A DNA stretch of 64,000 nt from an uncultured bacterium (lineage in GTDB: Bacteria; Patescibacteriota; JACMRA01): positions 704,001-768,000 of the forward strand of contig OY969926.1 in assembly GCA_963704645.1 (NCBI GenBank). The letters are read 5' to 3'. Positions within the stretch are counted from its first letter, which is position 1. Each line of letters starts with the position of its first letter. A program made the translations under genes and the position numbers. This document shows, piece after piece, positions 7,080 through 63,462 of this stretch. Under the pieces are notes generated by a model. The model saw only the letters and a list, made by a program, of their open reading frames with translations. It was not told the origin of the DNA and did no database searches.

Positions 7080-7559
7080 ATGACTATAGTACTTTGGAAT
7101 ATTCGCTCAGCTTGGAATGTTGGCTCTATTATACGAAGTTGCGACGCTGTTGGTGCAGATTTAATTTTGGTTGGATATACTCCTAGACCAGAAGGTTTAA
7201 CCTTAAAAGCCGTGGTTAAAACTGCAATTGGAGCTGAAAAAAATGTTAAGTGGCAAGCCTTCGAACATTACCAAGAAGTTTTACAAGCACTACCAAGCCA
7301 TCAACATTGGGGAATTGAAATTAACGAAAAAAGCCAAGACATTTTAGATTTTTTAGAAAACCCATCTAACAAAGCTAGCTGGAATAATACTTGCTTATGG
7401 TTTGGTAACGAAATTAGCGGGTTAACAGAAGAAGTAGGGCAACATTTACACGGACAACTACACTTACCAATGTTCGGCAAAAAAGAGAGCTTAAATGTGG
7501 CTAATACAGTTACTTCTACAGCTTACTTGTGGATGTGGGGGAGTAGAGGGGAGAAATAG
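7080..7559 (+). CDS. TrmH/SpoU family RNA methyltransferase
   Basis: NIRSAWNVGSIIR, FGNEISGL, LPMFGKKESLNV. Confidence 0.9.
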   Translation: MTIVLWNIRSAWNVGSIIRSCDAVGADLILVGYTPRPEGLTLKAVVKTAIGAEKNVKWQAFEHYQEVLQALPSHQHWGIEINEKSQDILDFLENPSNKASWNNTCLWFGNEISGLTEEVGQHLHGQLHLPMFGKKESLNVANTVTSTAYLWMWGSRGEK

Positions 7560-7607
7560 GCTATATATCCAAATCGAAATAATCTTAGAATTGATTGTTA
7601 CTGAAAA

Positions 7608-8375
7608 CTAAATTGATTTACGTCTGTTAATTTCAGCGACAGAGTTTTGTATACTGAGAATGTGATTTTGATTGTATAAATCTCCCAAAACTACTTCTAA
7701 TATTTTATATATATTTAAAACCTGTTCTCTTGATATTTTGGTATCCCTATGACTTCCACTATTTCCAGCCCATTTTATAGCTTCTAGTTTTTCTCCTGTT
7801 TTAACGTCTAGTTGTTTATACCTCATAATTAAACTGTGTAGGGCTTCTCTGTCATTTGTTTTCTCTATACCTATCTCAAATAAAATTTCTTCAACTAAAA
7901 CTCTTAGCTTATTAACACAAGATTGTTTGTCTACCCAGAATAAACTATATGATTCTTCTAGAACATTCATTATACTTTTGGGTGTACTATCTGGAGTATA
8001 AATGATTGATGGTGGCCTTGAGAAGTATTTAATTAAATAAAATGTTTCGTATACCCACTTCTCCTCCAACTCCTCAAAACTATATTTATCAACAACATTC
8101 TCAAAATACCCCATAACAATTGTTGAACCTGATACAATGATTTCTTCATTGCATTTTGGATTAGTACATCTAATTTTTACCGAAAAGTATCCAGTTAAAC
8201 TTTCAGGCTCTCCAACTTCTTCGTATATTGCCTGACTTTCTTTTGTGTTAAAATGTTCAATTTCACTCGATTTTGTCATTATGCATTTTCTGCAATACGG
8301 ACATGTGAAATTTTCTATATCTGTTTCTGAAAGGGTTTCATTCTTAAACAAATTTAAATTATATGGTAGGTGCAT
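7608..8375 (-). CDS. DUF4145-like domain protein
   Basis: N-terminal CPYC / CTNPKC zinc ribbon; C-terminal LRVLVEEI...IKWAGNSGSH. Confidence 0.7.
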   Translation of the reverse strand: MHLPYNLNLFKNETLSETDIENFTCPYCRKCIMTKSSEIEHFNTKESQAIYEEVGEPESLTGYFSVKIRCTNPKCNEEIIVSGSTIVMGYFENVVDKYSFEELEEKWVYETFYLIKYFSRPPSIIYTPDSTPKSIMNVLEESYSLFWVDKQSCVNKLRVLVEEILFEIGIEKTNDREALHSLIMRYKQLDVKTGEKLEAIKWAGNSGSHRDTKISREQVLNIYKILEVVLGDLYNQNHILSIQNSVAEINRRKSI

Positions 8376-8455
8376 ATTTTTAATAATATTCTGATATTCT
8401 ATTTAGTAAAATATAAAAAAGAGGGGTTGCCCCCTCCGCTACTCAATTTTGAATC

Positions 8456-10153
8456 CTAGTATTTAGTAAATCTTTCGTAATCTATACTTGTTGCTTGGGC
8501 TTCAATTTGTTTCAAAGTTTCAATTGTTACTGAAACTAAAATTAACAAAGTTGTTCCTCCTACAATTCCGCTTAAAGTTCCATCGCCAAAGTTAATGTTT
8601 TGGGTGAACAGAATAGGTACAACCGCAATTAAAGCTAAGAATAAACTACCAGCTACGTTAATTCTGTTAGAAACGTAATCTAAATAGTCCTTGGTTTCTT
8701 GCCCTGGTTTGTAACCTGGAATATAAGCACCACTTTTTTGTAAGTTTTCAGATACATCCTCAGTTTTAAATGCAACTGTAGAAGTGAAGAAGTAAGTGAA
8801 GAATATTACAAGTAAGAAGTAGAAGAAAGTGTAAGCTAAAATACCGTTTGATCTAACTGTGTATTCAGGTAGGAAACCTAAGTTAGTGCTTGGTAATTCA
8901 AAACTAATAGGGGTTCCTTCAAAGAAAGAGTTTTTAATCTGGCTTTGGGTAGTTATTGTAAAACCAAATAATTCTTGTCCTGTTGTTGGATCGTAATTTT
9001 TAGCTGTATTAATTGCATCGGTATTCTTACTAAAGTACATGCCTAAATAGTTTCTTTCTGGTAAGCCTGATGGTCTAATTGCATCTTGCTTGTTTTGAGT
9101 AGAAAGGTAGCTTTCAACTTGACTTGCACCGGTGGCGATGCTTCCTACATTGGCTGTAGTAAAGAACCTGGAAATTATTGAAGGAAATACTATAAATGCT
9201 ACTGCAAAAATAATTGGAACTACACCAGCAATATTTACCTTAATTGGTAAGTCAGCAGTTACTTTGCCCAAAGTTCTTGAGTTACCTTCGCTGTGACCTC
9301 TTCTAGAGTAAATTACAACTAATTTTCTTACCGCATCATTTACGAATACAACAAGAAGCAAGGTTGTTGTGAATAGTACAAGCACTTCTAAAAACCCTCT
9401 TGCAGGAGCCCAAGTTGGGTTTCCCCACAAAAAGGCTTGCCAAACTTCCCAGTTGGTTGCTTTAGAGAAGTTGAACTTTTCAAATAATAACTGAAAATTA
9501 GGTTGAATAGTTGCCCAGTATTTACTTAATTGGTCTGGCAAACGCACTACTATTCCTGAAAGAATTAATAGTGAAATACCATTTCCCATTTTGTATTCTG
9601 TAATAATTTCTCCAATCCACATCATAATAACGCTTCCTGCTGTCATTGATAATATAACTAAAGCCCAATATCCAAAAGATGCTAAAGTAATGTCTGGCTG
9701 CTTTAGAACATCTGGTAAGTTAATAGATTGACCAGTAGAGCTGCTACCAGAGGCTAGGAACTGTAAAATTGCCCAACTTTGGAAAGCTGCAAGTGGAATG
9801 GTTAGCCAACGTGTCCAGCGGTTAATTTTTTGCTTACCTTGTTCGCCTTCTTCCTTTTGAATTTCGTTAATTTTAGGAACAATTACACCCAAAAGTTGCA
9901 TTACAATACTAGCTGTAATGTAAGGACCTACACCTAACATTACAAAAGATAATCTTCCGTAAGATCCTCCAGATATTGTATTTAGTAAACCAAATACTGC
10001 ATCTGAATCAATGATATTGGCTATTTCTTGAATTCCTAAAATTGGAATTGGGATGTGGGCAAGTAGTCTTGCACCAATTAATAAAAGAATAATCTTAATT
10101 AATTTGGTTCTTAGTTCTGCATCGGTGAAAACCAATAGTAGTCGTCTAAACAT
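8456..10153 (-). CDS. secY: Preprotein translocase SecY with loop insertions
   Basis: LGVGPYITASI, GNGISLLI, NIAGVVPIIFA, YIPGYKPG, GGTTLLILV. Confidence 0.95.
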   Translation of the reverse strand: MFRRLLLVFTDAELRTKLIKIILLLIGARLLAHIPIPILGIQEIANIIDSDAVFGLLNTISGGSYGRLSFVMLGVGPYITASIVMQLLGVIVPKINEIQKEEGEQGKQKINRWTRWLTIPLAAFQSWAILQFLASGSSSTGQSINLPDVLKQPDITLASFGYWALVILSMTAGSVIMMWIGEIITEYKMGNGISLLILSGIVVRLPDQLSKYWATIQPNFQLLFEKFNFSKATNWEVWQAFLWGNPTWAPARGFLEVLVLFTTTLLLVVFVNDAVRKLVVIYSRRGHSEGNSRTLGKVTADLPIKVNIAGVVPIIFAVAFIVFPSIISRFFTTANVGSIATGASQVESYLSTQNKQDAIRPSGLPERNYLGMYFSKNTDAINTAKNYDPTTGQELFGFTITTQSQIKNSFFEGTPISFELPSTNLGFLPEYTVRSNGILAYTFFYFLLVIFFTYFFTSTVAFKTEDVSENLQKSGAYIPGYKPGQETKDYLDYVSNRINVAGSLFLALIAVVPILFTQNINFGDGTLSGIVGGTTLLILVSVTIETLKQIEAQATSIDYERFTKY

Positions 10154-10495
10154 ATATATTTATTAAAGCCGAAGTGGCGATTAAATTAAGGTAAATGCTA
10201 GCTTTTAATTTCGTCAAGCAAATTTGTAATGTGCATATATTATTATTTGTGTTATCTAGTCTAGATTAACTTTATTAATACAACAAAATATACCTAATAA
10301 ATAGGCTAGTTATTTTTTGATTGAATATAAATAGTGTAACAAAACTTAGTATATTTGTATTAATTATCTTATATATTGACTTTTTATTATAAAATTTTTA
10401 TGTTTTTAAATTGTTTGAATTATAAAATATCTTTATTTTCAATGAAAATTTGCAGCTTTAAAAAACCTTGTTTAAGGTATTAAGTACAAATGTCT

Positions 10496-10594
10496 TGACA
10501 AAAACATAATTCATTTGTATACGAAGCCTAATTTAATTAAACCTACAAACTAGTTTAGCATTTTATACTAAATAAAGTAGGAGGTTTTAGTTAA
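10496..10594 (+). promoter_or_regulatory. Sigma-70 promoter and 5' hairpin of small peptide gene
   Basis: TTGACA at 10496 and TATACG -10-like box; imperfect inverted repeat TTAATTAAACCTAC...GTAGGAGGTTTTAGTTAA. Confidence 0.55.
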
Positions 10595-10611
10595 AGAATT
10601 TATTATCTATT

Positions 10612-10734
10612 ATGTTAGCTTTTTTCCCACGTTACGCCAGTTTTGAAATTGGTTCACAAAGCATCGGCTTATTAGCTGGTTCTATAATTGTTCTTGCTGG
10701 AATCTACACATTCCGCAAAGTAACAGTTAAGTAA
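10612..10734 (+). CDS. 40-aa single-TM small protein
   Basis: MLAFFPRYASFEIGSQSIGLLAGSIIVLAGIYTFRKVTVK; codons TTC/TAC/ATC/CGT as in the HU gene; flanked by promoter and terminator. Confidence 0.75.
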   Translation: MLAFFPRYASFEIGSQSIGLLAGSIIVLAGIYTFRKVTVK

Positions 10735-10757
10735 TTACATTAACTTTCCAAGTTATT

Positions 10758-10784
10758 CAATCGCCTTCGGGCGATTTGTTTTTC
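10758..10784 (+). terminator. Intrinsic terminator
   Basis: AATCGCC-TTCG-GGCGATT followed by TGTTTTT. Confidence 0.8.
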
Positions 10785-11054
10785 GGCTTTAAAATAATTT
10801 TCAATTTATCATGCTTATGTCAATAGTTTAAGTTACTTTAAAAAAAGAGGCGCACAGCCAGAAAGTGTTTAGTCATTATCTCAAATGCAAACAAGCACAT
10901 TGTAGAATATTGAAATTAGGTTGTTGTAGAGTCATCTTTCAGTTGATGGAATAACTTAATTAAACTTATTAAAATGTACTACGACCAGCTACAGGTTAAT
11001 ATTAAAGATTTTTCAGAATTATTTTTATATAAGAAATTTATCCACTAACTGTGG

Positions 11055-11195
11055 TTACTTGTAGTTCAAGGATTTATTTTGCTGTTCTTGGCTGGTTTTC
11101 AATAAAATGTTGATGTATACAACATAATATCCTCCAAGAATTACAACTAAACCAATTACTACTAAAATAAAATTAATTACGTCCTGCTTCCTCAT
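11055..11195 (-). CDS. 46-aa single-TM small protein
   Basis: Hand-translated MRKQDVINFILVVIGLVVILGGYYVVYINILLKTSQEQQNKSLNYK; divergent from the exonuclease. Confidence 0.5.
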   Translation of the reverse strand: MRKQDVINFILVVIGLVVILGGYYVVYINILLKTSQEQQNKSLNYK

Positions 11196-11251
11196 AAAAA
11201 ATGGTTAGATTTGCCTTCTTAAGTTAATTATTATACTCTTCAAATACACAT

Positions 11252-11845
11252 ATGTCAAAAAATGCTAAATATTTAATATTAGATACAGAAGCCACTGGAT
11301 TACACCCGCATTTAAGTTGCTTGCTTGAAGTAGGAATAATTATTACAGACCAAGAATTAAACATTTTAGATAAAAAAGTTTGGGAGATTCAGCCTGAAGA
11401 AAACGCTTTTATAGACCCAGAAGCTATGAAAGTTAATAATATAGATTTAAATAAAAGGCCAGATGCAATTTCGCAATTAGTTTTTTGCCAAGAATTCTAT
11501 ACGTTTTTAAATAAATATTTTATTGAACCGCCAATTGTAGTAGCTCAATTTTACCCTTTTGATTACGCTTATTTAGATACAACTTTTGTAAAAAATTCTT
11601 TCGGTTCAAGGTTAGCACGTGAAATGTTGGGGAATAATTTTATTGATACAAAGGCTTTGGCGTATTATTTCAACTTAAAAGCTGAACGGGCTGGTACAGA
11701 GCCACCATTTCCTATAACTTCACTTTCTAAAGATGGTGGTTTAGCTGATAAATTAGGCATTTCTAGGCTTAAAGCCCATACAGCTTTAGGAGATTGTGAG
11801 GCAACTTTGGAGGTTTTAAAAGCCTACTTAAAAGGCAATATTTAG
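11252..11845 (+). CDS. DEDDh 3'-5' exonuclease (DnaQ-like)
   Basis: LDTEATGL, FDYAYL, IDT, HTALGD. Confidence 0.9.
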   Translation: MSKNAKYLILDTEATGLHPHLSCLLEVGIIITDQELNILDKKVWEIQPEENAFIDPEAMKVNNIDLNKRPDAISQLVFCQEFYTFLNKYFIEPPIVVAQFYPFDYAYLDTTFVKNSFGSRLAREMLGNNFIDTKALAYYFNLKAERAGTEPPFPITSLSKDGGLADKLGISRLKAHTALGDCEATLEVLKAYLKGNI

Positions 11846-11915
11846 CATACTTGCTTGACAAAAAGCTAACTTCCTTTTAGCTTCGGCCTAATTACTTAGA
11901 AAGGGGGTGATATGA

Positions 11916-12221
11916 ATGGCTAAAAGTACAACTCAAAAAATGAACCGCACAGAATTGGTAGATTCCATCTCCATGAATCTTGGCGTTTCCAAAGCTCAAG
12001 GTGAAAAATTCTTGAACACTTTTGTTAGCGTGGTTACTGACTCTTTGGCTAAAGGAATTGAAGTTAACATTACTGGCTTCGGCGTTTTCCGTAAGGTCAC
12101 CCGCAGTCCTAGAAAAGGTGTTAACCCTAAAACTAGAGAACCAATGCAAATTGCTGCTTCCACTAGTGTAGCTTACAAAGTAGGTAAAACCTTAAAAGAA
12201 GCTGTTAAATCAGGAAAGTAG
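11916..12221 (+). CDS. hup: DNA-binding protein HU
   Basis: MNRTELV, ITGFGVF, RKGVNPKTRE, KVGKTLKEAV. Confidence 0.95.
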   Translation: MAKSTTQKMNRTELVDSISMNLGVSKAQGEKFLNTFVSVVTDSLAKGIEVNITGFGVFRKVTRSPRKGVNPKTREPMQIAASTSVAYKVGKTLKEAVKSGK

Positions 12222-12352
12222 TTTTTTATAAACTCACACTTTGATAACTAGGCCACCCTTCGGGGTGGTTTGGTATTGGGCGAAATTAAGAGATGGTAAT
12301 CAATTATACTGTGGAGTTTCAATTCCCAGTCCGTTATAGATCAATTGGGAGT

Positions 12353-12383
12353 AACTGTCACCCTGAACTTGTTTCAGGGTCTA
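12353..12383 (+). repeat. Palindromic REP/MITE-like element, TGTC family, copy 2
   Basis: Identical 31 nt to 4333-4363; flanks also resemble those of the 47601 copy. Confidence 0.85.
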
Positions 12384-12512
12384 AGTGGGGCAATACTCAA
12401 AAACTTTTTATAAATTGCTCAAAAAGAGGCTATCTTTGTGCAATACAAAAGATATAGCAATTCGAAAGGTGGTCTTTTTTCTGAATGAAATATGAAAGAT
12501 GCTGTGAATTTA

Positions 12513-13649
12513 TTATTTTTGAATACTCTTTTTAAACAATTCATCATATTTCCCAGCCATACTTTCCAGCTGAAAATTATTTAAAACAGTTTTCCTAATT
12601 TCTTGTTTAACTCCAGAACTTTGCCAGTAATCAATATTTTTTATAAATTCCTGAATTTGTTTTAGCAAAGATTGAACATCGTCTAAAATATGAACAAGTT
12701 TTTTCTCTAGAATGTTTTCTTGTAAACTTTTTAATTCTAAAAACACGTCTAAATTGGAACACAAAACCGGCACTCCGCGTTCCCAGCTTTCGGCTACAAC
12801 TAAACCGAAACTTTCACGTCTGCTTGGAAAAACAAACAAATCTAAGTTGTTGTAAAAATTAAGGGTGGGGGAAACGAAGCCTTCCCACAAAATGTTAGTA
12901 TTTGAGTTGAACTGTAAATCTCTCTCCAAAGCCTTCAAGCTCTCTAAATACTCTCCTTCACCCGCCAAATGCACAATTAGTTTTTTGTTCACCTCCAATT
13001 TACTTAAAGCTTTTAGTAAAACGTCTGCACCTTTTTCTTCGTGCATTCTTCCTAAAAACCCAATGTGAATTTCCTCTCGGTTACTCCAATTCGCAATATC
13101 AAGATTAGAAACAGGAATTCCGTGATGAATTACACTGCTGTTTTTAGCTATTTCTCCATCTTTACTCCATTCGGCTTTTTGGGCTTCAGACATAAAAACC
13201 ACAGGATATTTCTTCCACATCCATTTTAAAATTGGCAGAAGTGGGCTTTTTTGAATAGATTTTGGAAAACGGTTGTTCTGAATAATAAAAACCATGGGTT
13301 TATTCCACAAAATTCTTACGAAAGGAAGAACGAAAAATAATTCTGTGAATGATGTTGGGGAAACAATAATGTCAGCCTCTTTAAACTCGTTTCTAAACTT
13401 AAAAACATGTAGTAGCCCTAAAATAAAGCTAAAAGGGCTTAGAAGTAGGTTTTTTACTGTTACAGGTTCGAATCCAGCTGAAGCTAGGGTGGCTTTCATT
13501 CCTAATTTTTCAAAAACTTTGTACAAAGCCAAACTTCCACCTAAAAAACTATGTTCATGCTGCGGAAGGTTGGTAACCAAATTTTCAATAAATTTTTCTC
13601 CACCTCCGTAATTGCTTTTTAAAGGGGAAGAAACGTACAGGATGTTCAT
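12513..13649 (-). CDS. Glycosyltransferase family 4
   Basis: YGGGE, GRMHEEKG, PSRRESFGLVVAE. Confidence 0.92.
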   Translation of the reverse strand: MNILYVSSPLKSNYGGGEKFIENLVTNLPQHEHSFLGGSLALYKVFEKLGMKATLASAGFEPVTVKNLLLSPFSFILGLLHVFKFRNEFKEADIIVSPTSFTELFFVLPFVRILWNKPMVFIIQNNRFPKSIQKSPLLPILKWMWKKYPVVFMSEAQKAEWSKDGEIAKNSSVIHHGIPVSNLDIANWSNREEIHIGFLGRMHEEKGADVLLKALSKLEVNKKLIVHLAGEGEYLESLKALERDLQFNSNTNILWEGFVSPTLNFYNNLDLFVFPSRRESFGLVVAESWERGVPVLCSNLDVFLELKSLQENILEKKLVHILDDVQSLLKQIQEFIKNIDYWQSSGVKQEIRKTVLNNFQLESMAGKYDELFKKSIQK

Positions 13650-13773
13650 GGTTTAAGACTTTGAATATTTGGATTTTTAGTAAAGGGTGATTTGATTCTG
13701 GTATTCCAATAAATTTGGGCATGAAATAAAGCTGGGGTTTCCAGCTTGGTATATTTGAATTAGATAATAGTAT

Positions 13774-14112
13774 TTACACTACAAAACCATTAACCTCGGA
13801 GGTAGAGAGAATACAATCTCTAAAATCAGTTTCAGAAGTATAATCATTTGATAGAGTTCCAACAACTACACGAACCGCCTGGCCTTTTTTAGGCTTGTCA
13901 AAAGTAAGGTCTACCGCAAAAAAATAGACATTGCCATCTATTTGTTCTGGCTCGGCGAGATAATATCTTTCAAGCCAGACTCCTGCTCCATCAGGCTTAG
14001 AATCAAGATCAATTTCAAGTGTTGTTTCTTTTGTGACAGATGCTATCAGATTATTTGATCGAAATGAAATGGGCTGAGCTGAAACATTTATTGTTAAAAT
14101 ATTTCCGGGCAT
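13774..14112 (-). CDS. Orphan cassette protein (~112 aa)
   Basis: The ORF-track TTG at 14187 is the promoter -35 box; GGAG precedes ATG 14112; terminator hairpin at ~13728-13748. Confidence 0.55.
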   Translation of the reverse strand: MPGNILTINVSAQPISFRSNNLIASVTKETTLEIDLDSKPDGAGVWLERYYLAEPEQIDGNVYFFAVDLTFDKPKKGQAVRVVVGTLSNDYTSETDFRDCILSTSEVNGFVV

Positions 14113-14227
14113 TTTTTTGTAATTCTCCAAATAAATTTGTTTGCTTTTATACATTTCTTTTAAAGCACAATAATAATTTAATTGCAAGATTTTATGCTTT
14201 TGTGGATTCCAATGTTGGCTCGTAAAC

Positions 14228-14294
14228 TGCGCCGCTACTGGAACGGTGAGCGTTCCCCTACGTGTGGTGATGGCGCCGCGGTCGCCGCCGCTAC
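14228..14294 (-). repeat. Cluster of three GTAG-tagged REP-like palindromes
   Basis: Minus strand GTAGCGGCGGCGACCGCGGCGCC, GTAGGGGAACGCTCACCGTTCC, GTAGCGGCGCA; GC-rich island in AT-rich DNA. Confidence 0.6.
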
Positions 14295-14389
14295 GATTTT
14301 ATGTAAAAATTCTTTGTGAGGGTTGTTTTATTTAGAGGTTTGTGAATTTGTTTGACACGGCATGTTTAGCATGTTAACCTTTAACAATT

Positions 14390-16021
14390 ATGGTATTTTG
14401 GCGCAGATTTGAGAAAAACAAAATTGAAAGATCTATTCATGGTGAAAAATTTGATAAATACATGTATGTTATTAATAACACGGCAGTTCTAAAACTGATT
14501 TATGGAATTGGTATAATTACTTGGCTAATTGCGTTGTATGGCCATATTTTATTCTTGAATTTGAACATACTTTATCGGTTCATTTTTGGTCCTTTTATTT
14601 TTATTTTAAGCTGTTATTATCTAATAATATATTCAATAAACTTTTTTTATAAAACCCCAGACTTAAATTATCATAAAAAACTGGTTAATTTTTTTACTTC
14701 AAACAAATCTAATGCTCCAAGTGTTGATATATTTTTACCAGTTTGCGGCGAAAGCATGCAAATTATTAATAGAACTTGGCTTAGCGTAAGTAATATTAAT
14801 TATCCAAATTACCAGGTTTATGTGCTTGATGATAAGGGGGGGAATAGAGCTGGAGAACTTAGCTAAAGAATATGGTTTTAAATATTTATCCAGACCGAAT
14901 AAAGGGGAGATGAAAAAAGCAGGAAATTTGAAATATGGATTTGAAAGAAGTGAAGGGGAGTACATTGTGGTTTTTGACGCCGATTTTGCTCCGTTGCAGA
15001 ATTTTTAAATGAAACAGTTCCGTACATGACATTGGATAAAAATATTGGTATTTTGCAAACTCCGCAGTATTTTGAAATTCACAAAAACTTGCATAAAAAA
15101 AGTTGGTTGGAATATGGTGCAGCGGCTACTCAGGAAGATTTTTATAGAATTATTCAAGTGGCTAGAAATTCATTTGGGGCGGCAATTTGTGTAGGAACTA
15201 ACGCAGTTTATAGACGATCCAGTTTAGATAAATTTGGGGGTACCTATCAAATTGAACATTCAGAAGACGTGTGGACGGGAGTAATGATGCTGCAAAATAA
15301 ATTTAAGATAAAGTATATTCCATATATTCTTGCCCAAGGTTATTGCCCAGATGATTTTGTATCATTCTTCAAGCAACAATACAGATGGTGTAAAGGAAGT
15401 ATGAGCTTACTGTTTAGTACAACTTTTTGGAAACTTAAAATACCTTTTCAAACTAGACTTTCATACATTTCAGGTTTTCTTTATTATATTCATGCTGCTT
15501 TTCCTTCATTCTTATCAATAATTGGTTTTGTAGCCTTAGCATTTCATTTTGATAATATAACTATACTTTACTCTCTTCCCTTTCTTCCCTTTTTAATTTT
15601 TTCTTTATTTGTTCTCCCACTAATTAGATTGCATAAAACTAAAATTGGAATTTATGTAGCAAGCTTTGCCGCTCTTAGTGCCTATACACTTGCTTTATTC
15701 CACACTATTTTTAAAATTAATATGTCGTGGCAGCCCACAGGGCAAAGAAACCAGAGTAATTATTGGTTCAATTTTGTATATGTATTTAATGCAATTTTTA
15801 TTGGATCTTATTTATTTGCCATTGGTATATTTTTCGCTCAAGGTAAGATTGTTTTAAGTGATTATAAGTATTATGGAATATTAATTTGGATGGTGTATAA
15901 CATTATAATATTTAATTTGTATCTATTCGTAGCAGGGAAAGATGCCTATCTAAAAAATATTAAGATTGAATTGCCAGTGAGTATTTCCAAAGTGACAACT
16001 TCATTTCGGCAGCTGTTTTAG
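14390..16021 (+). pseudogene. Processive GT2 (cellulose synthase-like) glycosyltransferase, broken by two homopolymer frameshifts
   Basis: Three ORF pieces carry VLDD, KAGNL, FDADF, QTPQ, SEDV, QYRW in order; G7 at 14836-14842 and T5 at 15002-15006. Confidence 0.85.
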
Positions 16022-16112
16022 GCGTGGTGTTTAGTTGTTTGAGAGTGTAGATAGGGCGGGGTTTGTCGTGTTGCCTGTGGCGACGCAACATTGCTGCTGC
16101 GAATTTCCTTGA

Positions 16113-16150
16113 AAACAAAAAAACTCCCTGAAATGGGGTTAATTTTATTG
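16113..16150. repeat. 38-bp direct repeat of tRNA-Arg(CCT) 3' end and terminator
   Basis: AAACAAAAAAACTCCCTGAAATGGGGTTAATTTTATTG identical to 16931-16968. Confidence 0.85.
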
Positions 16151-16278
16151 ATGGTGTTTGTTCCTTTCGGGTTTGGCTGATGCAAAAAACTTTGTATCTG
16201 AAAAAAAGATGTGATGGAGAATAGAATTAAATAATTTACCCAACAAAAAAGCTGTTTTCCCAGCTGATAATTAAAGTT

Positions 16279-16785
16279 CTACACATACTGAGCGGTAGAA
16301 AAGGAACCATGAGTGATTCCAATTATTTTTGGATTACAACTACCATTAAGATGATAACACTTCCTTTTAATATTGTAACGAAAACGTTTCCACTTCCGGC
16401 TATATTTGTAGAAAAGGATATGACAATTTTTAGGTGTAAAACACGTTCCCCACAAAGCAACAATTGTTGCAGTAACGGAAAACTGGTGCGAATACACTGG
16501 CCAACCATCATCGTGGGTCGGGTGTCCGAACAAAGCCCGTACAGAGCCTCCAATAGTTGGATTAGAAGCCAATTCTAAAGGTAGACTAATTCCAAAAAGC
16601 GAAAAATCAAACAAACTTGACGAACTGCAATCAAATCTAATGACCTTACTATTTTTTAAATAAAAACTAGGATCTCCATCGCCGTAATAAGGTGCATTAT
16701 TAATGTTCAGATCGATCAATAGAATTTGATTAGGGTGAATTGTACCATTAATGTCTGGTGCTTCAACTAAAATTGCTGCATACAT
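16279..16785 (-). CDS. Orphan cassette protein
   Basis: 168-aa ORF with GAGG before ATG, promoter motif at 16865-16837 and terminator at ~16244-16267. Confidence 0.55.
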   Translation of the reverse strand: MYAAILVEAPDINGTIHPNQILLIDLNINNAPYYGDGDPSFYLKNSKVIRFDCSSSSLFDFSLFGISLPLELASNPTIGGSVRALFGHPTHDDGWPVYSHQFSVTATIVALWGTCFTPKNCHILFYKYSRKWKRFRYNIKRKCYHLNGSCNPKIIGITHGSFSTAQYV

Positions 16786-16966
16786 GGGTTTTCCCTCAGT
16801 TTTTATAAATTCAATAAGTAGCTTTTAAGCTCTTTAATATAAGCACAGAAATATACTTTATGCAAGAGTTAGTTGTATTTTTCAAACCACAAATGGTGAT
16901 ACACGCTAGTCGCTACAAATTCCCTCCAAGAAACAAAAAAACTCCCTGAAATGGGGTTAATTTTAT

Positions 16967-17043
16967 TGGTGGTCTCGGCGCGACTTGAACGCACAACCTT
17001 TTCCTTAGGACGGAACTGCTCTATCCAATTGAGCTACGAAACC
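16967..17043 (-). tRNA. tRNA-Arg(CCT)
   Basis: GGTTTCG/CGAGACC acceptor stem, anticodon loop GTCCTAA, GTTCAAGT T-loop, CCA. Confidence 0.88.
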
Positions 17044-17153
17044 ATAATTTAAGCAAGATAATAAATTTTGAAACGGTCAAATTAGCTGTGTCTTTCTTGC
17101 CTGAACATATTAGAAAATACACCTATATCTTTATATTTTTGTGAATGTACTTA

Positions 17154-17184
17154 ACTTAGACCCTGAAACAAGTTCTGGGTGCAG
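17154..17184 (-). repeat. TGTC-family palindromic element, degenerate copy 3
   Basis: ACTTAGACCCTGAAACAAGTTCTGGGTGCAG is the reverse complement of the family with 2 changes. Confidence 0.75.
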
Positions 17185-17265
17185 TACTTGGAATGCGCCT
17201 GCTTTGAATTTAGCTTGAAATTTAAAACATTTGACTGAATATAAATCTTAATTATAGCTATATGT

Positions 17266-18495
17266 ATGAACTATCCAGCAGATAAAATAAGAAACATTGC
17301 TATTATTGCACACGTTGACCATGGTAAAACTACTTTAATGGACGGTCTTATTCGTCAGACACTTGAAATTAGAAATGTAGAAAGCCTTGGAGATTTAATT
17401 ATGGATTCCATGGATCAGGAGCACGAACGTGGAATTACAATTAAAGCTAAAAACGCTAGTATTTATTATAAAGAATACAAATTAAACATTGTAGATACCC
17501 CTGGTCACGCCGATTTTGGTGGAGAAGTAGAAAGAGGACTTAGAATGGTAGACGGTGTTGTTTTGCTTGTAGATGCACAAGAAGGTCCAATGCCTCAAAC
17601 TAAGTTTGTACTTAAAAAAGCTATTCACCTTGGTTTAAAAGTTGTAGTAATTGTAAACAAAGTAGACAAGCCTGCAGCTGATCCTAAAAAAGCTTTGTCT
17701 AAAGTTGAAGATTTGTTCCTAGATTTGGGTGCCTCTGACGAACAAATGAATTTTCCAATTGTTTATGCTAGCGGTGTACAAGGTAAAGCTGGTAAATCTC
17801 CAGATAAATTAGAAGATAACCTATTTGGTTTATTAGATGTAATAATTGATAATGTCCCAGCTCCAACAGTGGCTCATCAAGATGTAACCGACGTTAATCC
17901 ACTTCAAATTATGGCTTTGGCTTTAAGCTATGATAACTTTAAGGGTAAAATTGCTGCTGGTAAAATTCTTTCTGGTAAAATTACTAAGAACATGCCAATT
18001 TCAGTTATTAAAGAAGATAGTACTGTAAAAGGAAGAGTTACAAGTCTACTTGTTTTTGATGGACTTAATATTAAAGAAATTGAAGAGGCTTCAGCTGGTG
18101 AAATTGTTATGGTTGCAGGTGTTGATACAATTCAAATTGGTGATACAATTACAACTGCAGAATTCAACCAGGCTCTTCCAAGAATTAAAGTTGACGAACC
18201 TACAATTAGAATGACTTTTGGCGTAAATACTTCACCTTTTGCTGGAAAAGAAGGAAAACTTGGAACTTCCAGACAAATTAGAGAAAGACTTTACAAAGAG
18301 TTAGAAACTAACGTAGCTTTACGTGTTTCCGACCATCCAGAATCTGCAGACAAATTTGTAGTTTCCGGTAGGGGTGAGCTTCATCTTGCTGTTTTAATTG
18401 AAACCATGAGAAGGGAAGGTTTTGAACTTGAAGTTTCCCGTCCTGAAGTTATTATGAAAACTAAGGAAGAGGTAGAAGCTATGGAAGCAGCGTAG
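17266..18495 (+). CDS. typA: TypA/BipA GTPase, N-terminal part (domains G, II, III)
   Basis: IAHVDHGKTT, ERGITI, DTPGHADFGGEVER, NKVD, GRGELHL; ends SRPEVIMK plus a short novel tail. Confidence 0.93.
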   Translation: MNYPADKIRNIAIIAHVDHGKTTLMDGLIRQTLEIRNVESLGDLIMDSMDQEHERGITIKAKNASIYYKEYKLNIVDTPGHADFGGEVERGLRMVDGVVLLVDAQEGPMPQTKFVLKKAIHLGLKVVVIVNKVDKPAADPKKALSKVEDLFLDLGASDEQMNFPIVYASGVQGKAGKSPDKLEDNLFGLLDVIIDNVPAPTVAHQDVTDVNPLQIMALALSYDNFKGKIAAGKILSGKITKNMPISVIKEDSTVKGRVTSLLVFDGLNIKEIEEASAGEIVMVAGVDTIQIGDTITTAEFNQALPRIKVDEPTIRMTFGVNTSPFAGKEGKLGTSRQIRERLYKELETNVALRVSDHPESADKFVVSGRGELHLAVLIETMRREGFELEVSRPEVIMKTKEEVEAMEAA

Positions 18496-18543
18496 AAAAA
18501 CTTCATGTAAAAAGAAAAGCCCCAGAAATGGGGTTATATTTAA

Positions 18544-19038: not shown

Positions 19039-19076
19039 TGATTTCTCCAAATGATAATCAAATTTGTTCGAATAAT

Positions 19077-19100
19077 GGAGATGGCAAGCATCTCCGCTAC
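19077..19100 (-). repeat. GTAG-tagged REP-like palindrome
   Basis: GTAGCGGAGATGCTTGCCATCTCC, 22/24 identical to 56042-56065. Confidence 0.7.
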
Positions 19101-19178
19101 ACTAGAATAATTGTAAATTTTTAGTAGTTTTGGCAAATATTTGACTTGAAATGAAAAAATTGAGTTGATTTATTTAAT

Positions 19179-23130: not shown

Positions 23131-23145
23131 ACATTATACAAATTT

Positions 23146-56012: not shown

Positions 56013-56175
56013 GGGGTAATCATTGAAATTCACAACACTATGTAGGGGAGATGCTTGTCATCTCCCAGGGGTAAGGGGATGGGGAGTGGACTTTAGTATG
56101 GGAATACTTTAACTCAACAACACCAAGTAGGGGAGATACCCTATCTCCCTGGGTAAACGAAGGGAAAGGAGGGAA
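55635..56175 (+). repeat. 541-bp perfect direct repeat, copy 1
   Basis: Identical by eye to 58051-58591; last 125 codons, stop and 163 nt downstream. Confidence 0.92.
56042..56149 (+). repeat. Two GTAG-tagged REP-like hairpins with G-tracts
   Basis: GTAG-GGGAGATG-CTTGT-CATCTCCC and GTAG-GGGAGATA-CCC-TATCTCCC; repeated at 58458-58565. Confidence 0.75.
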
Positions 56176-56247
56176 GGAAATCATCTCCAATCCCCTTTGC
56201 CCAAACCCAAAAAACAAAATACAATAAAACAAAACCAAAACAAAAAT

Positions 56248-58428
56248 ATGAATCAAAAATCATTTCCTAAAAAAGGTAATATTCTAAAATCATTCCTTCA
56301 ATCTAAAAAAGGACAATATTCTTTATTCTCTTTATTAACACTTTCTGTATTATTAATATCTGGATTATTTACTTTCTCTTTATTACAAAATACTGACACA
56401 GCATTAGCTGCTTTAAATTGTCCTGCTGGTTCTACTGTAAGTGGAAATACTTGTATATCTAATACTCCTTCTTCTTATACTTGTCCTGCTGGTCAGACTG
56501 TTAGTGGAACTAGTTGCATTACTACAAGTTGTCCTCAAGGTGGGGATTTAAGTGGTGGAAGTTGTGTAGCCAGTAATGCAAGTCCAGTGCAGACTAATGA
56601 TGCATGCCCAGTTTACACTTTTGGAGGAGCAACTCTTCAATCAGAAGCATTGGTTAGTGGTATTTCATTTTGTTTTACTGAGGGCGCAGAAGGTTCTAAT
56701 GCCAGTGTTACATATAATATAAATAATTGTAATTTAGGCTATGACTCTAATATTATACAGAATTACAATCAACCGACTTATGGAATTCCAGTAAATTATT
56801 TTGGAAGTACTGGGTCTTTTGTCTCCAGCTTTGGGGGGGCTGGTTCTACTTACCAATCTCCAAATGGTATTTGTGCTGGTGTAGTTCAATACGCACTAGG
56901 AGCAAATAATGAACCAGATATACAAAGAGTTTACGCTTACTGGAAAAAAGGACTATACACTTCTGTATATTCCTACACCGCCACAACCACCACCACAGGC
57001 TCAGCCACACCAGTCTACGGAACAGCAGTAACCCCAACTTCCTACACCCCAGAACCAGGCCAAATCACAGGTCTAACCTGTACACCTTCTAGCGTTGTAG
57101 CCTCAGGAACAGTAAACTGTAGCGGACAAGCCACAGGAGCACCAAGTGGAGTACCTTATGCAGGAAACATTACAGTAACAATAGACAACGGAGGAGGAAG
57201 TATAACAACTACAATAAACCCAGACGGAACTTTCACAGCTTCTTCAGTACCAGTAGGAACAACCACAGGAACTAAAGCAGCTACAACTAACTTAGGAGGA
57301 ACAACTTCTATTACAGTTACAGCAGCTTCTATCACAGTAGACCCAGACCTAGCTTCAGGCCCAGGAAGTTTATCTAACTCTACAGATTGTACAAGTGCAA
57401 AGAACGTAACTATTGGAACTGTCTACACTTGTTCTTTCCCAATCAACGGAACAGGCCCATTTGTATTACCAGCAGGAGGAATACAAGCTAGAACCAATCA
57501 AAGTGCAAACAACTCTACCCCAGTAAACACATGTACCATTGCAGCTTCAGTATTAACCTGTACAGGAATAACAACAGTAGGAACACCAAGTACATTAATA
57601 GCAGGAACTGGTAATGTACAATTAGGTAAGGGAACAACTCCAGCTACTTGGAACACTAAGGGAGTAGTTACCTTGGTAGCTGCCACCTCCCCCCTAACCA
57701 CAACCGACATCCCTTCCCTTACAGTAACATGTGGAGTAGGAGGAACTCCTGGAACAGTAAGAGTAAACACTACAACAACTTGTACCTTCACTCTTCCTAC
57801 AAACAAAACATTACCAAATAACTTCAAACTAGGAATAGGTAATGCAACCCCTGCAGGAACTTGTACTGTAGGAACAGGAATAAACTCTAGTCTAGTAACT
57901 TGTATTAACGTACCAACAGGAACACTTCTTGGAACACAACCTATTAACGGACAAATAGGAACTGAAACAATAACACCTACAGGAGAAACAGTAAATGTAA
58001 TAGATTCACTATGTTCCACAACTAACCCATGTGCCCTATTCGAAACAGCACTAACCTACAACCCAACCCAAGCCCTAGCCAAAAGATATGGAGCTTCTGG
58101 TTCTACAAACTCAGATAACCTAATACTAACTCTAAAAGATACAAGATTAGAACAATCTGGATTTACTACAACATGTTCCATAAAATATAAATTCAGAACA
58201 GATACAAGCTACAGAATATTAACAACAAACTCTACCTACAATAATACTACAGGATGTACAGGAAACCTTCTTAAAGCAAATCAACTATTATTCAATGTAG
58301 ACTTTGAAATAACTGCAATAACTACAAATACAACTACAAACACTACAAAGAACTATCTAATCTATTCCAACTACGATTTCAAAGCTGGTTCTATTGGAGT
58401 TACTTCTATTGGAGGAAGTGGGTTGTAG
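56248..58428 (+). CDS. Secreted Cys/Thr-rich adhesin-like protein with shared C-terminal domain
   Basis: ATG 56248 after A/C-rich leader; CPAG.T.SG..C repeats; Ig-like repeats homologous to the upstream gene; identical last 125 aa. Confidence 0.8.
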   Translation: MNQKSFPKKGNILKSFLQSKKGQYSLFSLLTLSVLLISGLFTFSLLQNTDTALAALNCPAGSTVSGNTCISNTPSSYTCPAGQTVSGTSCITTSCPQGGDLSGGSCVASNASPVQTNDACPVYTFGGATLQSEALVSGISFCFTEGAEGSNASVTYNINNCNLGYDSNIIQNYNQPTYGIPVNYFGSTGSFVSSFGGAGSTYQSPNGICAGVVQYALGANNEPDIQRVYAYWKKGLYTSVYSYTATTTTTGSATPVYGTAVTPTSYTPEPGQITGLTCTPSSVVASGTVNCSGQATGAPSGVPYAGNITVTIDNGGGSITTTINPDGTFTASSVPVGTTTGTKAATTNLGGTTSITVTAASITVDPDLASGPGSLSNSTDCTSAKNVTIGTVYTCSFPINGTGPFVLPAGGIQARTNQSANNSTPVNTCTIAASVLTCTGITTVGTPSTLIAGTGNVQLGKGTTPATWNTKGVVTLVAATSPLTTTDIPSLTVTCGVGGTPGTVRVNTTTTCTFTLPTNKTLPNNFKLGIGNATPAGTCTVGTGINSSLVTCINVPTGTLLGTQPINGQIGTETITPTGETVNVIDSLCSTTNPCALFETALTYNPTQALAKRYGASGSTNSDNLILTLKDTRLEQSGFTTTCSIKYKFRTDTSYRILTTNSTYNNTTGCTGNLLKANQLLFNVDFEITAITTNTTTNTTKNYLIYSNYDFKAGSIGVTSIGGSGL

Positions 58429-58591
58429 GGGGTAATCATTGAAATTCACAACACTATGTAGGGGAGATGCTTGTCATCTCCCAGGGGTAAGGGGATGGGG
58501 AGTGGACTTTAGTATGGGAATACTTTAACTCAACAACACCAAGTAGGGGAGATACCCTATCTCCCTGGGTAAACGAAGGGAAAGGAGGGAA
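58051..58591 (+). repeat. 541-bp perfect direct repeat, copy 2
   Basis: Identical to 55635-56175 (offset 2416). Confidence 0.92.
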
Positions 58592-58658
58592 TGGGTGTAT
58601 TTTGACGAAAAATTTATCTACAATAATTATTGTTTTAGAAACACATTTTATTATTTAT

Positions 58659-59660
58659 ATGTCCAAACCTACAATGTTAACAGGAGATAGGCCAACGGGG
58701 CCGCTACATATTGGCCACTATTTTGGCTCTTTGGTTAATAGGAAAAAATACCAGAATGAATATAAAACTTTCATAATGGTGGCTGATGTACAGGCTTTAA
58801 CTGATAATTGGGATAATCCTGAAAAAGTTAGGCAAAATGTTTTTGAAGTGGCTGTAGATAACATGGCTTTAGGCTTAGAAGCAGAAACTAAGTTGTTCAT
58901 TCAAAGCCAAATTCCCCAAATAGCCGAATTAACAGTATATTTTTCTAACCTTGTCACTATTAACCGTTTAAAAAGAAATCCAACGGTTAAAACTGAAATT
59001 GAACAAAAGAAAGATAAGTTTGGAAGCGAAGGTGAGAGTTTGACTTTTGGGTTTTTAGGTTACCCAATTTCACAAGCCGGAGATATTACTTTGGTTAGAG
59101 CTAATATTGTTCCAGTTGGTGAAGATCAGTTGCCAGTAGTAGAACAGACCCAAGAAATTGTGGAAAAATTTAACAGAATTTATAAGCAAAATGTTTTTCC
59201 TTACCCTAAAGCACTTTTGTCTGAATCGCCTAGAATTTTGGGTTTAGATGGAAATGCTAAAATGAGTAAAAGCTTAAACAACTGTATATATTTAAAGGAT
59301 GACGAAGACACTACAATTGCTAAAATTAAAGTAGCTAAAACAGATTCCATTTCCGAAATTTATTTTGACGAAGAAAACAGACCAGAAATTTCCAACTTAA
59401 TTAGAATGTATGGTCTAGTAAATAATATTTCAATAGAAAAGGCTGCAGAAGATTTGAAAGGGTTAAATAATTCAGCTTTTAAACAAAAGTTGGCCACAGA
59501 TATGAACCTATATTTTGCAGAATTTAGAGCCAGAAGACTTCAAATTGCTAACAATCCAAAGCTTGTATGGGAAAAGCTTGAAGAGGGCAGGCAGGCAGTG
59601 TTAAAAGAGGCTGAGCTAACCATGGCAGAGTTAAGGAAAGCTATGAGAGTGGATTATTAA
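58659..59660 (+). CDS. trpS: Tryptophanyl-tRNA synthetase
   Basis: TGDRPTGPLHIGH, YP.SQA.DI, VPVGEDQ, KMSKS. Confidence 0.96.
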   Translation: MSKPTMLTGDRPTGPLHIGHYFGSLVNRKKYQNEYKTFIMVADVQALTDNWDNPEKVRQNVFEVAVDNMALGLEAETKLFIQSQIPQIAELTVYFSNLVTINRLKRNPTVKTEIEQKKDKFGSEGESLTFGFLGYPISQAGDITLVRANIVPVGEDQLPVVEQTQEIVEKFNRIYKQNVFPYPKALLSESPRILGLDGNAKMSKSLNNCIYLKDDEDTTIAKIKVAKTDSISEIYFDEENRPEISNLIRMYGLVNNISIEKAAEDLKGLNNSAFKQKLATDMNLYFAEFRARRLQIANNPKLVWEKLEEGRQAVLKEAELTMAELRKAMRVDY

Positions 59661-62177: not shown

Positions 62178-62190
62178 AAAAGGTAAAAAA

Positions 62191-62568
62191 TTATACTGCA
62201 GCTTTAACTGGTTTAGTTCTAACAGATTTAGCTGGATCTTTAATATCTCTTAGGTTGTAAAGTTTAGATCTTCTTCCTCTTTGTAAAGGTGTGGTTAATA
62301 CAACTTTTGAAATTAATGGAGAGTGTAATGGGAAAACCCTTTCAACTTTAATTCCTGCTGTGGCATTTTTTAGAACTGTGAAAGTTCCATCGGAACCCAT
62401 ACCATGCTTCATGCTGATTATAACTCCGCTGAAAACCTGGATTCTTTCTTTATCACCTTCAATAATTCTGTAGTGTACATCAACACTGCTTCCTGGCTTA
62501 AGTTGTGGTAGATCGTTTCTGAGTTGAGCCTTAACCACAGAACTATTCAAAATCTTTAAATTGGACAT
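62191..62568 (-). CDS. rplS: 50S ribosomal protein L19
   Basis: EGDKERIQVFSG, VERVFPLHSP, RRSKLY.LR. Confidence 0.96.
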   Translation of the reverse strand: MSNLKILNSSVVKAQLRNDLPQLKPGSSVDVHYRIIEGDKERIQVFSGVIISMKHGMGSDGTFTVLKNATAGIKVERVFPLHSPLISKVVLTTPLQRGRRSKLYNLRDIKDPAKSVRTKPVKAAV

Positions 62569-62686
62569 AGACTATTCATTTAAAAGAAAGAAAAGTTATT
62601 GCTTTAGTCAAGCCTATACTTGACACAACTTACGAATCGGGGAAGTTTTAATAGTTTTTCCGTTAAAATCAAATTAATATAAATAT

Positions 62687-63268
62687 ATGTATGTAGACCC
62701 TAAACAAGCCGAGTTCGTTGAGGCGAATACCTTTGCTAAGCAATTTTCGTTGCGTCATGTTTTTCGTGCTGGAGCCATAATTTGGTGCAAATATAGAGGA
62801 AAAGATTACTATGTAGTTTTTAAATCTATTACCAGACCTAATCGTGGCACGCAATTACCTGGTGGTAGAATAGAACGTAGCGAAAACTTTGCTGAAACAA
62901 TATTAAGAGAAGTTCAAGAAGAGAGTGGAATTCAAACCAGAATTATCTGTCCTTTGGGCTTTTTGTATTACGAAAATGCAGCCGATAATTATTCTAATAT
63001 GCAACTTTATTATATTGTTCGCCCGTTATTTAAAGTTGATGTTTTTAAGAAGTGGAAGCATGTCGATAAAGATTTAACCAAGCAAGAACTAGAATGTTGG
63101 TGTGTAGATGTGGAAGAGCCTACCAATTTTTTGGCTGCCGGCCAAGCTCAAGTTGTAGAAATGTTCAAAGTTTGGCTAAAAGACCATAAAAAGAAGACTG
63201 ATGGGCATAAAAAAGATAAAGGAAATGATAAAGTAACTAATGAAGTTATTAGTAAGATAGAAGTTTAG
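62687..63268 (+). CDS. NUDIX hydrolase
   Basis: PGGRIERSENFAETILREVQEESG Nudix box. Confidence 0.88.
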   Translation: MYVDPKQAEFVEANTFAKQFSLRHVFRAGAIIWCKYRGKDYYVVFKSITRPNRGTQLPGGRIERSENFAETILREVQEESGIQTRIICPLGFLYYENAADNYSNMQLYYIVRPLFKVDVFKKWKHVDKDLTKQELECWCVDVEEPTNFLAAGQAQVVEMFKVWLKDHKKKTDGHKKDKGNDKVTNEVISKIEV

Positions 63269-63462
63269 TTTCTATAAAAATGTATATTTTACCACCCGTA
63301 AGGGGTGGATTTTTAGTATTAGAATTTCTTTTTAAAAGGTTGCTGTAATTCCTATTAATCCCCACCACCACTAATCAGTCCAAAAATGAACACAAAATAT
63401 CTTGGACATATATAAGCTTTATCTGAAGAATTGATCATTCACAATTCAGATACAGACTATTT

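Follow-up and report, generated by a model that had tools for sequence, protein, structure and literature searches.

The stretch considered here comprises positions 704,001–768,000 of a closed genome (G000; 1,272,640 bp, 33.4% G+C) of an uncultured patescibacterium, and these 64,000 nucleotides are referred to as the window. Five of its genes, encoding a SpoU/TrmH-type methylase (trmH below), the N-terminal part of TypA, a Mur ligase, TyrS and TrpS, end in DNA that is rich in G on the coding strand. In an earlier sequence-only reading, housekeeping genes of this AT-rich genome were proposed to turn G-rich over their last 30–80 nt before an accessory gene, as a directional substitution bias left by repeated recombination. 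The strings quoted in that account lie where they were placed, and its gene names, including DUF4145 for the gene facing trmH and murD for the Mur ligase, agree with the Pfam assignments. The G counts of the five tails (Table 1) compare with a mean of 5.4 in random in-frame 30-nt windows of gene bodies. In the genome as a whole, these patches are the most pronounced examples of a ramp that is anchored at the stop and in which G-ending codons become more frequent (NNG in place of NNA, and TAG in place of TAA) over the last ~10–15 codons. The ramp is specific to G, depends on the position of a gene in its operon, is weaker where a hairpin terminator follows, and is patchily distributed among relatives.

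Table 1. Genes, gene tails and other features of the window (window coordinates; counts of G refer to the final 30 coding nt).
Feature	Position	Strand	Basis or description
SpoU/TrmH-type methylase gene	7080–7559	+	Pfam
trmH tail, last 15 codons	7515–7559	+	16/30 G, stop TAG
DUF4145 gene	7608–8375	-	Pfam
typA N-terminal fragment (409 aa: GTPase, domain 2, domain III)	17266–18495	+	Pfam
typA-N tail	18451–18495	+	12/30 G, purine-rich, stop TAG
Bidirectional hairpin terminator between typA-N and a 168-aa minus-strand ORF	18518–18535		Hairpin scan
Mur ligase gene (murD)	31351–32916	+	Pfam
Mur ligase tail	32872–32916	+	16/30 G, 8 of the last 10 codons G-ending, stop TAG
tyrS	36812–38077	+	Pfam
tyrS tail	38033–38077	+	14/30 G, stop TAG
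1947-aa surface-protein gene tail	55968–56012	+	12/30 G, C-terminus KAGSIGVTSIGGSGL, followed by two REP hairpins
743-aa surface-protein paralog tail	58384–58428	+	Same C-terminus KAGSIGVTSIGGSGL, same 3' flank
trpS	58602–59660	+	Pfam
trpS tail	59616–59660	+	10/30 G, stop TAA
C-rich patch	63360–63371	+	Intergenic, past the hairpin terminator of a NUDIX gene, ~90 nt before the next large ORF; no gene tail

The surroundings of the cited tails differ from gene to gene. The trmH gene faces the DUF4145 gene convergently at a distance of 48 nt, with no hairpin terminator in the gap; its tail holds a 12-mer resembling the head of a repetitive extragenic palindromic (REP) sequence, and the tail of its ortholog in a species of the same genus (G001) is likewise G-rich, with the final 3–4 residues differing. 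The Mur ligase ends in the tryptophan-rich peptide EWWVQWVRGLK, and the tail of its ortholog in G001 is less G-rich. The final 16 nt of tyrS are identical in G001, and the next open reading frame (ORF), which begins 15 nt on, has no ortholog there. The trpS gene is convergent with a 164-aa ORF without a Pfam match, and its tail is G-richer in G000 than in G001.

In G000, 1,114 ORFs were called by a simple rule combining the longest ORF with a codon score, with no trained gene finder. Junctions with a co-directional gap of at most 20 nt were classed as tight, third-position G is denoted G3 (and third-position C, C3), and paralogous tails were deduplicated for the single-codon profile, the REP exclusion, the paired tail/body test and the rare-codon test, by which inflation through paralogs is rejected. 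Among the 797 genes of at least 450 nt, overall G3 was 0.108; the final 10 codons reached 0.179, with a fall in C; toward gene ends, G3 doubles as C3 drops from 0.133 to 0.114. At 831 deduplicated non-tight ends, G3 was observed to climb monotonically from about codon −15 to codon −1, with values of ~0.13 at −15, 0.206 at −3, 0.238 at −2 and 0.254 at −1. The third base of the stop codon is G (TAG) in 0.41 of these genes, after which G stands at 0.18 at +1 and 0.12 at +2. When tails were paired with internal windows of the same genes, 1.854 G3 per 10 codons were found in tails and 1.166 in bodies (n = 833 non-tight ends, Wilcoxon p = 1.7e-28), whereas tight junctions showed no rise (1.09 vs 1.02, n = 155, p = 0.71). 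At least 11 G in the last 30 nt occur at 10.4% of 666 non-tight ends and in 1.9% of random in-frame body windows; of the 82 genes of at least 300 nt that reach this count, 11 are paralogs with a common surface-protein C-terminus. Where tails are richest in G, the excess extends ~10 nt beyond the stop. Blocks of 30 nt with at least 14 G are enriched 4.6-fold in sense-strand tails (44 of 462 blocks), and most strongly G-rich blocks lie outside tails.

These profiles modify the earlier account in several respects. The patches are real, but the ramp, with its anchor at the stop, covers about 30–45 nt and not 80. It is present at nearly all ends that are not operon-internal and is not confined to housekeeping genes with an accessory gene after them. 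The five examples were genuine but hand-picked, since only 6 of the 33 strongly G-rich blocks in the window fall in tails. The adhesin modules said to show the same polarity have G-rich tails, but a single C-terminus, present in 11 paralogous copies, underlies them, so that they do not count as independent cases. Of the C-rich patches said to follow the variable slots, the sole one cited (at 63361) is intergenic and upstream of an ORF, and fits the general depletion of G before starts.

The ramp follows the coding strand. It was found on both replication strands (0.249 for leading-strand genes and 0.212 for lagging-strand genes), by which a replication-strand skew is rejected as its cause. It also depends on the distance to the next gene: G3 in the last 5 codons was 0.107 at co-directional gaps of at most 20 nt (n = 131), 0.165 at 21–60 nt (n = 98) and 0.222 above 60 nt (n = 265), and convergent ends gave 0.222 (n = 108) and 0.255 (n = 195). 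The stop codon is TAG at 260 of 584 ends with gaps above 60 nt and at 39 of 156 tight ends. The G enrichment, whose presence inside conserved operons would have spoken against the earlier account, is absent there: G3 at tight ends is 0.10 and conserved neighbours 21–60 nt apart carry 1.26 G3 per 10 codons against ~1.1 in bodies.

Most of the rise is synonymous. From the amino acids alone a G3 of 0.129 would be expected at gene ends, 0.190 was observed, and bodies have 0.107; amino-acid composition, which had been named as a possible full explanation, accounts for only about a quarter of the rise and is rejected as the cause. W, K, R, M, E and V are more frequent among C-terminal residues, and T, A, P and H less so. 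The share of GGG among glycine codons rises from 8.4% to 23% at gene ends. Given the amino acids, rare G-ending codons in the last 5 positions are enriched 1.88-fold and common G-ending codons 1.69-fold, rare C-ending codons stand at 1.08-fold and A-ending codons at 0.83-fold; since common G-ending codons rise while rare C-ending codons stay flat, the last 5 codons point to a switch from A to G more than to rare-codon enrichment in general. Further from the stop, at codons −10 to −6, the rise is similar for rare codons ending in C (1.34-fold) and in G (1.37-fold). The most strongly enriched last codons, AGG, GGG, AAG and GAG, are decoded by single-copy C34 tRNAs. The 5-mers enriched in tails (2.4–4.8-fold) are many different G-rich words, among which no dominant motif of the kind expected of a Chi-like, singly oriented oligomer was found.

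A Shine–Dalgarno (SD) site of the downstream gene was considered as a source of the G-rich ends. Loss of the anti-SD sequence in bacteria of the candidate phyla radiation is treated in PMC9297842; the 16S rRNA of G000 keeps the canonical anti-SD tail CACCTCCTTT (C1:425820–425871). SD-like motifs precede 7.3% of starts and occur at 10.1% in mid-gene positions, which indicates that SD sites are unused. Leaders are A/T-rich, with G at 0.06–0.09 in the 15 nt before 298 starts co-terminal with those of the congener, so that start regions are the mirror image of the G-rich coding ends. Sequences binding the anti-SD at −6 kcal/mol or better increase from ~1.5% to 3.9% just before stops and make up 0.0–0.9% at tight co-directional ends. 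With SD sites unused, G3 at tight ends of 0.107 and strong binders in only 3.9% of tails, a downstream SD site is rejected as the cause.

Hairpins are associated with the ramp negatively. A hairpin-plus-T terminator was detected at only about 16% of non-tight ends by a conservative finder, with which a second scan of window positions 7000–26000 agreed on 6 of 7 hairpins while adding 2. Ends with such a terminator carry 1.43 G3 per 10 codons and those without one 1.93 (133 vs 720 ends, p = 0.0005); in regressions that include other factors, the hairpin term keeps a coefficient of −0.78 to −1.0, and the effect recurs in G001 (1.52 vs 1.92, p = 0.03). Hairpins at least 15 nt after the stop drive the weaker ramp (1.31, n = 99). 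The possibility that the ORF tail forms the 5' arm of an intrinsic terminator is rejected, as no excess of pairing over swapped controls was found and ends with hairpin and T tract have the weaker ramp. Searches detected no Rho in G000 or in any of the 13 genomes of its order that were covered, and the factor is present in G014, G016 and G018. Among RNases, PNPase, RNase J and an RNase Y-like protein are encoded in G000, and no RNase R/RNB enzyme was found there. ATG is avoided after stops, at 48% of expectation at +1 to +15 and 58–69% beyond, an effect too weak to rely on.

The genome contains a REP family of the form GTAG[CGA]GG[CA]GA, loop, TC[GT]CC, with 125 head matches, about 100 of them with hairpins, and a copy lies within −60 to +200 at 62 of 831 ends. 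At the 662 ends without a REP-like head in that interval, G3 was still 0.213, 0.168 and 0.153 at codons −1 to −3, −4 to −6 and −7 to −10, against a body-level reference of 0.115 at codons −40 to −21. REP remnants are thus rejected as the general cause. Eleven giant surface-protein paralogs of the genome share the C-terminus KAGSIGVTSIGGSGL, and in most of them the ~50 nt that follow the stop are nearly alike as well; two REP heads lie within ~120 nt of the stop in the copies inspected (window positions 56013–56196 and 58429–58601).

The relation of the ramp to gene order was studied against G001, for which 891,593 bases in 30 contigs, rated 86% complete, were retrieved and 576 reciprocal-best orthologs (median identity 70%) were paired with G000; some genes and junctions labelled variable or accessory are falsely so labelled owing to this incompleteness, SecY and TypA, which have no match there, being examples. 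Core genes with non-tight ends whose downstream neighbour differs in G001 carry 2.33 G3 per 10 codons (n = 313), and those with the same neighbour 1.55 (n = 153, p = 2e-7). Of the core tails with at least 10 G, 71 of 82 lie at non-syntenic junctions compared with a base rate of 60% (odds ratio 5.2, p = 3.5e-8; precision 87%), and in the window such tails belong to 4 of 14 core genes at variable junctions and to 0 of 17 at conserved ones. The suggestion that the skew points to variable junctions therefore holds statistically, with the qualification that the association is confounded with operon structure. Conserved co-directional pairs show 0.95, 1.26 (n = 53), 1.59 and 1.94 G3 per 10 codons at gaps of at most 20, 21–60, 61–150 and 151–400 nt, whereas variable pairs are flat over gap size at 1.9–2.8. 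Bodies have ~1.1–1.2, so conserved neighbours 21–60 nt apart are nearly ramp-free. Convergent pairs gave 1.77 when conserved (n = 43) and 2.34 when variable (n = 176), a borderline difference (p = 0.06), and gaps above 150 nt gave 1.76 and 2.17 (p = 0.15). With G001 as the focus, which is not independent of G000, the values were 1.59 and 2.15 (p = 0.0014), and 1.64 and 2.15 in convergent pairs (p = 0.06). Core-to-accessory junctions and junctions of core genes with relocated core genes were alike (2.37 vs 2.26, p = 1.0). In the first 10 codons past variable junctions no shift in C or G was detected (p = 0.6–0.9), in a test weakened by intervening promoters and leaders. Overall, variability of the neighbour is in large part confounded with where transcription units end, because conserved co-directional adjacency mostly means membership of the same operon.

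The tails are not young. Comparison of the two species gives 6.0 identical residues among the last 10, a level of conservation like that of bodies (0.68), and tails with more than 10 G have 6.9 of 10 residues identical and are co-terminal with the ortholog in 69% of cases. G-rich tails are thus conserved as well as bodies and are not fragments of recently arrived DNA, and a recent replacement of the C-terminus by incoming DNA is rejected on the same ground. Where the amino acids are identical, the last 5 codons of G000 genes had a G3 of 0.240 and their bodies one of 0.095, the corresponding values for G001 being 0.202 and 0.098; codon identity between the congeners is not higher in tails (0.523 vs 0.549 in bodies). 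The region thus remains G-rich although single sites turn over, which suggests a sustained regional pressure and is illustrated by the tyrS, trmH, Mur ligase and trpS tails compared above.

Ten genomes were compared with the same crude pipeline on sampled DNA, with 70–160 ends each and hence a standard error near 0.02–0.03 (Table 2). The ramp is strong in G000, G001, G009 and G007, which represent three genera of the family. It is weak in G002 and G013, and G010, G016, G018 and G020 essentially lack it. It is thus lineage-specific and patchy. Initiation without SD sites is common to the whole order, and Rho was not found in the ramp-bearing genomes, nor in ramp-less G010, G013 and G020; neither trait by itself predicts the ramp. 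Ramp strength correlates with the density of GTAG hairpins over the ten genomes (Spearman 0.68, p = 0.03), which is a lead only, the genomes being kin.

Table 2. Third-position G in gene bodies and tails of G000 and relatives.
Genome	Relation to G000	Body G3	Tail G3 (codons −1 to −3)
G000	Own genome	0.107	0.232
G001	Same genus	0.116	0.212
G009	Same family	0.129	0.249
G007	Same family	0.165	0.255
G002	Same family	0.144	0.179
G013	Same order	0.148	0.185
G010	Same family	0.121	0.138
G016	Other family of the phylum	0.163	0.188
G018	Other family of the phylum	0.149	0.157
G020	Other family of the phylum	0.236	0.220

The explanation preferred here, with confidence somewhat short of even, is that the ramp reflects selection on the mRNA of terminal cistrons. 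We infer both that the ramp is selected at all and what its molecular role might be. Leaders here are G-poor, A/U-rich and without SD sites, no Rho was found and hairpin terminators are few; in such a setting, enrichment in G at the close of the coding sequence would set the end of a message apart from a start region. Such an end could take on some of the insulating or stabilising role at the 3' end that falls elsewhere to a hairpin or to the following cistron. Terminal cistrons differ from internal ones in having no translated sequence after them, in requiring a 3' end to be made and kept, and in being followed by DNA that is free to change. A signal inside a conserved ORF would survive exchange of the downstream DNA, which would explain why the ramp is strongest at variable junctions. 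A more specific proposal, in which a functional G-rich "end of message" signal embedded in the ORF at synonymous sites stands in for the terminator hairpin and tolerates downstream exchange, is considered distinctly unlikely; if it were true, operon ends and zones of plasticity could be read from a single genome.

Several observations weigh against selection on terminal messages. Mean G downstream of stops is at or below background, although a functional 3'-end element would predict a signal in the 3' untranslated region too. Tails pair with their own downstream sequence no better than swapped controls do (n = 566), and predicted pairing is not raised in tails. Hairpins less than 15 nt after the stop are not accompanied by a reduced ramp (1.76, n = 34), which, in small numbers, speaks against a simple anti-reinitiation role. 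Variable adjacency retains an effect after gap, orientation and terminators are accounted for (b = 0.85–0.90, p ~1e-8; 0.52, p = 0.013, at gaps above 60 nt). The SD-less genomes G010 and G013, in which Rho was likewise not found, lack the ramp. Genes with the highest codon-usage scores carry weaker ramps, and the ramps of accessory genes are weaker than those of core genes; the same weakening in codon-adapted and accessory genes would follow from a weak mutation bias that codon selection counteracts. Moreover, the gene set consists of our own crude longest-ORF calls, in which stops are exact and starts approximate.

A bias of mutation or repair tied to the junction itself, which broadens the recombination idea of the sequence-only reading to include transformation, break repair and REP/RAYT activity, would produce mainly synonymous A-to-G changes on the strand running into the junction, where DNA at the edges of exchangeable slots would repeatedly be single-stranded, recombined or repaired. 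It is the main rival and is judged unlikely. The predictive value of G-rich tails for non-syntenic junctions fits it, as does the persistence of the variability effect under controls, which is borderline in convergent pairs, where operons are impossible (p = 0.06 in both G000 and G001, not independently). The change is chiefly from A-ending to G-ending codons, codon-adapted genes resist it and accessory genes show less of it, ComEC and DprA genes are present in the genome, tails beside REP copies are somewhat G-richer (0.29 vs 0.228), ramp strength tracks GTAG-hairpin density among the kin genomes, and the excess reaches ~10 nt beyond the stop in those tails that are richest in G. On average, however, the excess peaks at the stop, not at the junction, and is gone at +1; G alone rises while C falls, and we know of no process giving a rise of G only over just ~45 nt. 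Conserved junctions still show an excess of about 60% (1.76–1.77 vs 1.1–1.2), including those more than 150 nt wide, junctions with accessory and with rearranged core genes are equivalent, and, within the limits of the promoter-weakened test, no shift in C or G appears beyond variable junctions. The G-rich tails are old and at least as protein-conserved as bodies, and the ramp stays where REP-like heads are missing. The substitution bias that recombination was said to have left thus found no support.

An effect of translation-termination kinetics, or a general enrichment of rare codons at 3' ends, is regarded as very unlikely. TAG is read by release factor 1 (RF1) alone, a textbook point counted in favour of a termination effect, as is the use of single-copy C34 tRNAs by the most enriched last codons. 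Termination-only explanations fail, however, because every ORF terminates, yet roomy internal cistrons are without the ramp: the conserved co-directional neighbours 21–60 nt apart, which lie beyond the constraints of a start site, are almost free of it, and dependence on hairpins and on junction variability is not predicted. For rare codons, enrichment at ORF 3' termini has been published (PMC2833160), and the parallel rise of rare C-ending and G-ending codons at −10 to −6 agrees with it, but the enrichment over the last 5 codons is specific to G-ending codons, common ones included, as described above. Known elements overlapping the gene end, namely downstream SD sites, terminator stems beginning in the ORF, REP heads that provide the stop and a Chi-like motif, are hardly probable as the general explanation. 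Some REP heads (GTAG...) do lie at or in gene ends, trmH offers a possible instance, and strong anti-SD sites become more frequent before stops. Against this, SD sites are unused and tight junctions show no G rise, tails do not pair with downstream sequence beyond swapped controls, the ramp survives the removal of REP-like heads, and the enriched k-mers are diffuse with no single motif. Known elements are therefore largely refuted for the bulk of genes and hold for a minority, the REP-associated ends counted above.

Several known phenomena resemble the ramp in part. The SD sequence of a downstream gene can be embedded in the end of the upstream gene, and work by Eyre-Walker from 1996 is reportedly associated with SD sequences in upstream gene ends. 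Embedded SD sites likewise involve purine-rich or G-rich synonymous choices in the last codons, but in the opposite context: the ramp is not seen where a co-directional gene follows closely, and it peaks at ends that are convergent or isolated. REP and REPIN sequences, with GTAG heads and mobilisation by RAYT, share with the ramp G-rich heads at or over the stops that end transcription units; the ramp instead lies within conserved coding sequence, forms no palindrome and is present far from REPs, with whose density it only correlates. GC-biased gene conversion and the footprints of recombination hotspots also give a local rise in third-position G+C near exchange sites and an association with non-syntenic junctions. 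The enrichment at content-variable junctions that biased conversion predicts was seen, confounded with operon structure, whereas the symmetric rise of G and C was not, C3 declining and the first 10 codons across variable junctions showing no shift. The ramp differs further in involving G of the coding strand only, in its length of ~45 nt, in its anchoring at the stop and in its presence at conserved junctions.

The rare-codon enrichment at the 3' termini of ORFs of E. coli and other prokaryotes, as described in the available passages of Clarke & Clark 2010 (PMC2833160), is similar in being a genome-wide, position-dependent synonymous choice near the stop. Compared with what those passages describe, the ramp is specific to G and not to rarity in the last 5 codons, includes the stop codon, and occurs in some genera of one family. 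It also depends on operon position, hairpin terminators and junction synteny, and the same passages contain no analysis of operon position. In the full-text literature searched, outside which subscription journals and supplements lie, no account was found of a ramp that is specific to G, anchored at the stop and dependent on operon position, terminators and synteny.

Patescibacteria are mostly uncultured, and their transcript ends and the choice of ribosome sites are known almost only from sequence. For such organisms the ramp would give a marker of transcription-unit ends obtained from sequence, separating terminal from internal cistrons. A tail with at least 10 G is also a practical marker of gene-order change, at the precision and base rate reported for core tails. 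Ramp-bearing and ramp-less relatives offer a natural contrast for asking what does the work of Rho and hairpin terminators in reduced genomes. Were the cause mutational, the ramp would be a new strand-specific footprint of genome exchange.

Some further observations concern the window and the decoding system of the genome. The typA (bipA) gene is split (17266–19814) into the N-terminal part of 409 aa and a C-terminal part of 211 aa (EFG_C and BipA_C), separated by the 168-aa minus-strand ORF, which has no Pfam match, and the bidirectional hairpin. The break apparently lies in an inter-domain linker, and the final ~11 residues of the N-terminal part presumably are non-native, judged by comparison with a TypA sequence. 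The secY gene (8456–10153, minus strand) adjoins the DUF4145 gene and lies away from a ribosomal-protein operon. Neither secY nor typA had a match in the retrieved bases of G001; the region at ~7.6–24.5 kb of the window may be absent from that assembly or may be genuinely variable.

TAG is unusually frequent as a stop codon for a genome of 33% GC. TGA is rare, ending 44 of 1,114 ORFs and 8 of 411 long ORFs, and G001 is alike, with 15 TGA among 744 ends. Loss of release factor 2 (RF2) or recoding of TGA is rejected, as an unframeshifted RF2-like gene was found and ORFs ended by TGA would be read through only briefly (median 8.5 codons). G000 has 41 tRNA genes, including one for tRNA-Ile(UAU), and only two tRNAs with a CAU anticodon; because of this combination, AUA seems to be read without a lysidine tRNA.

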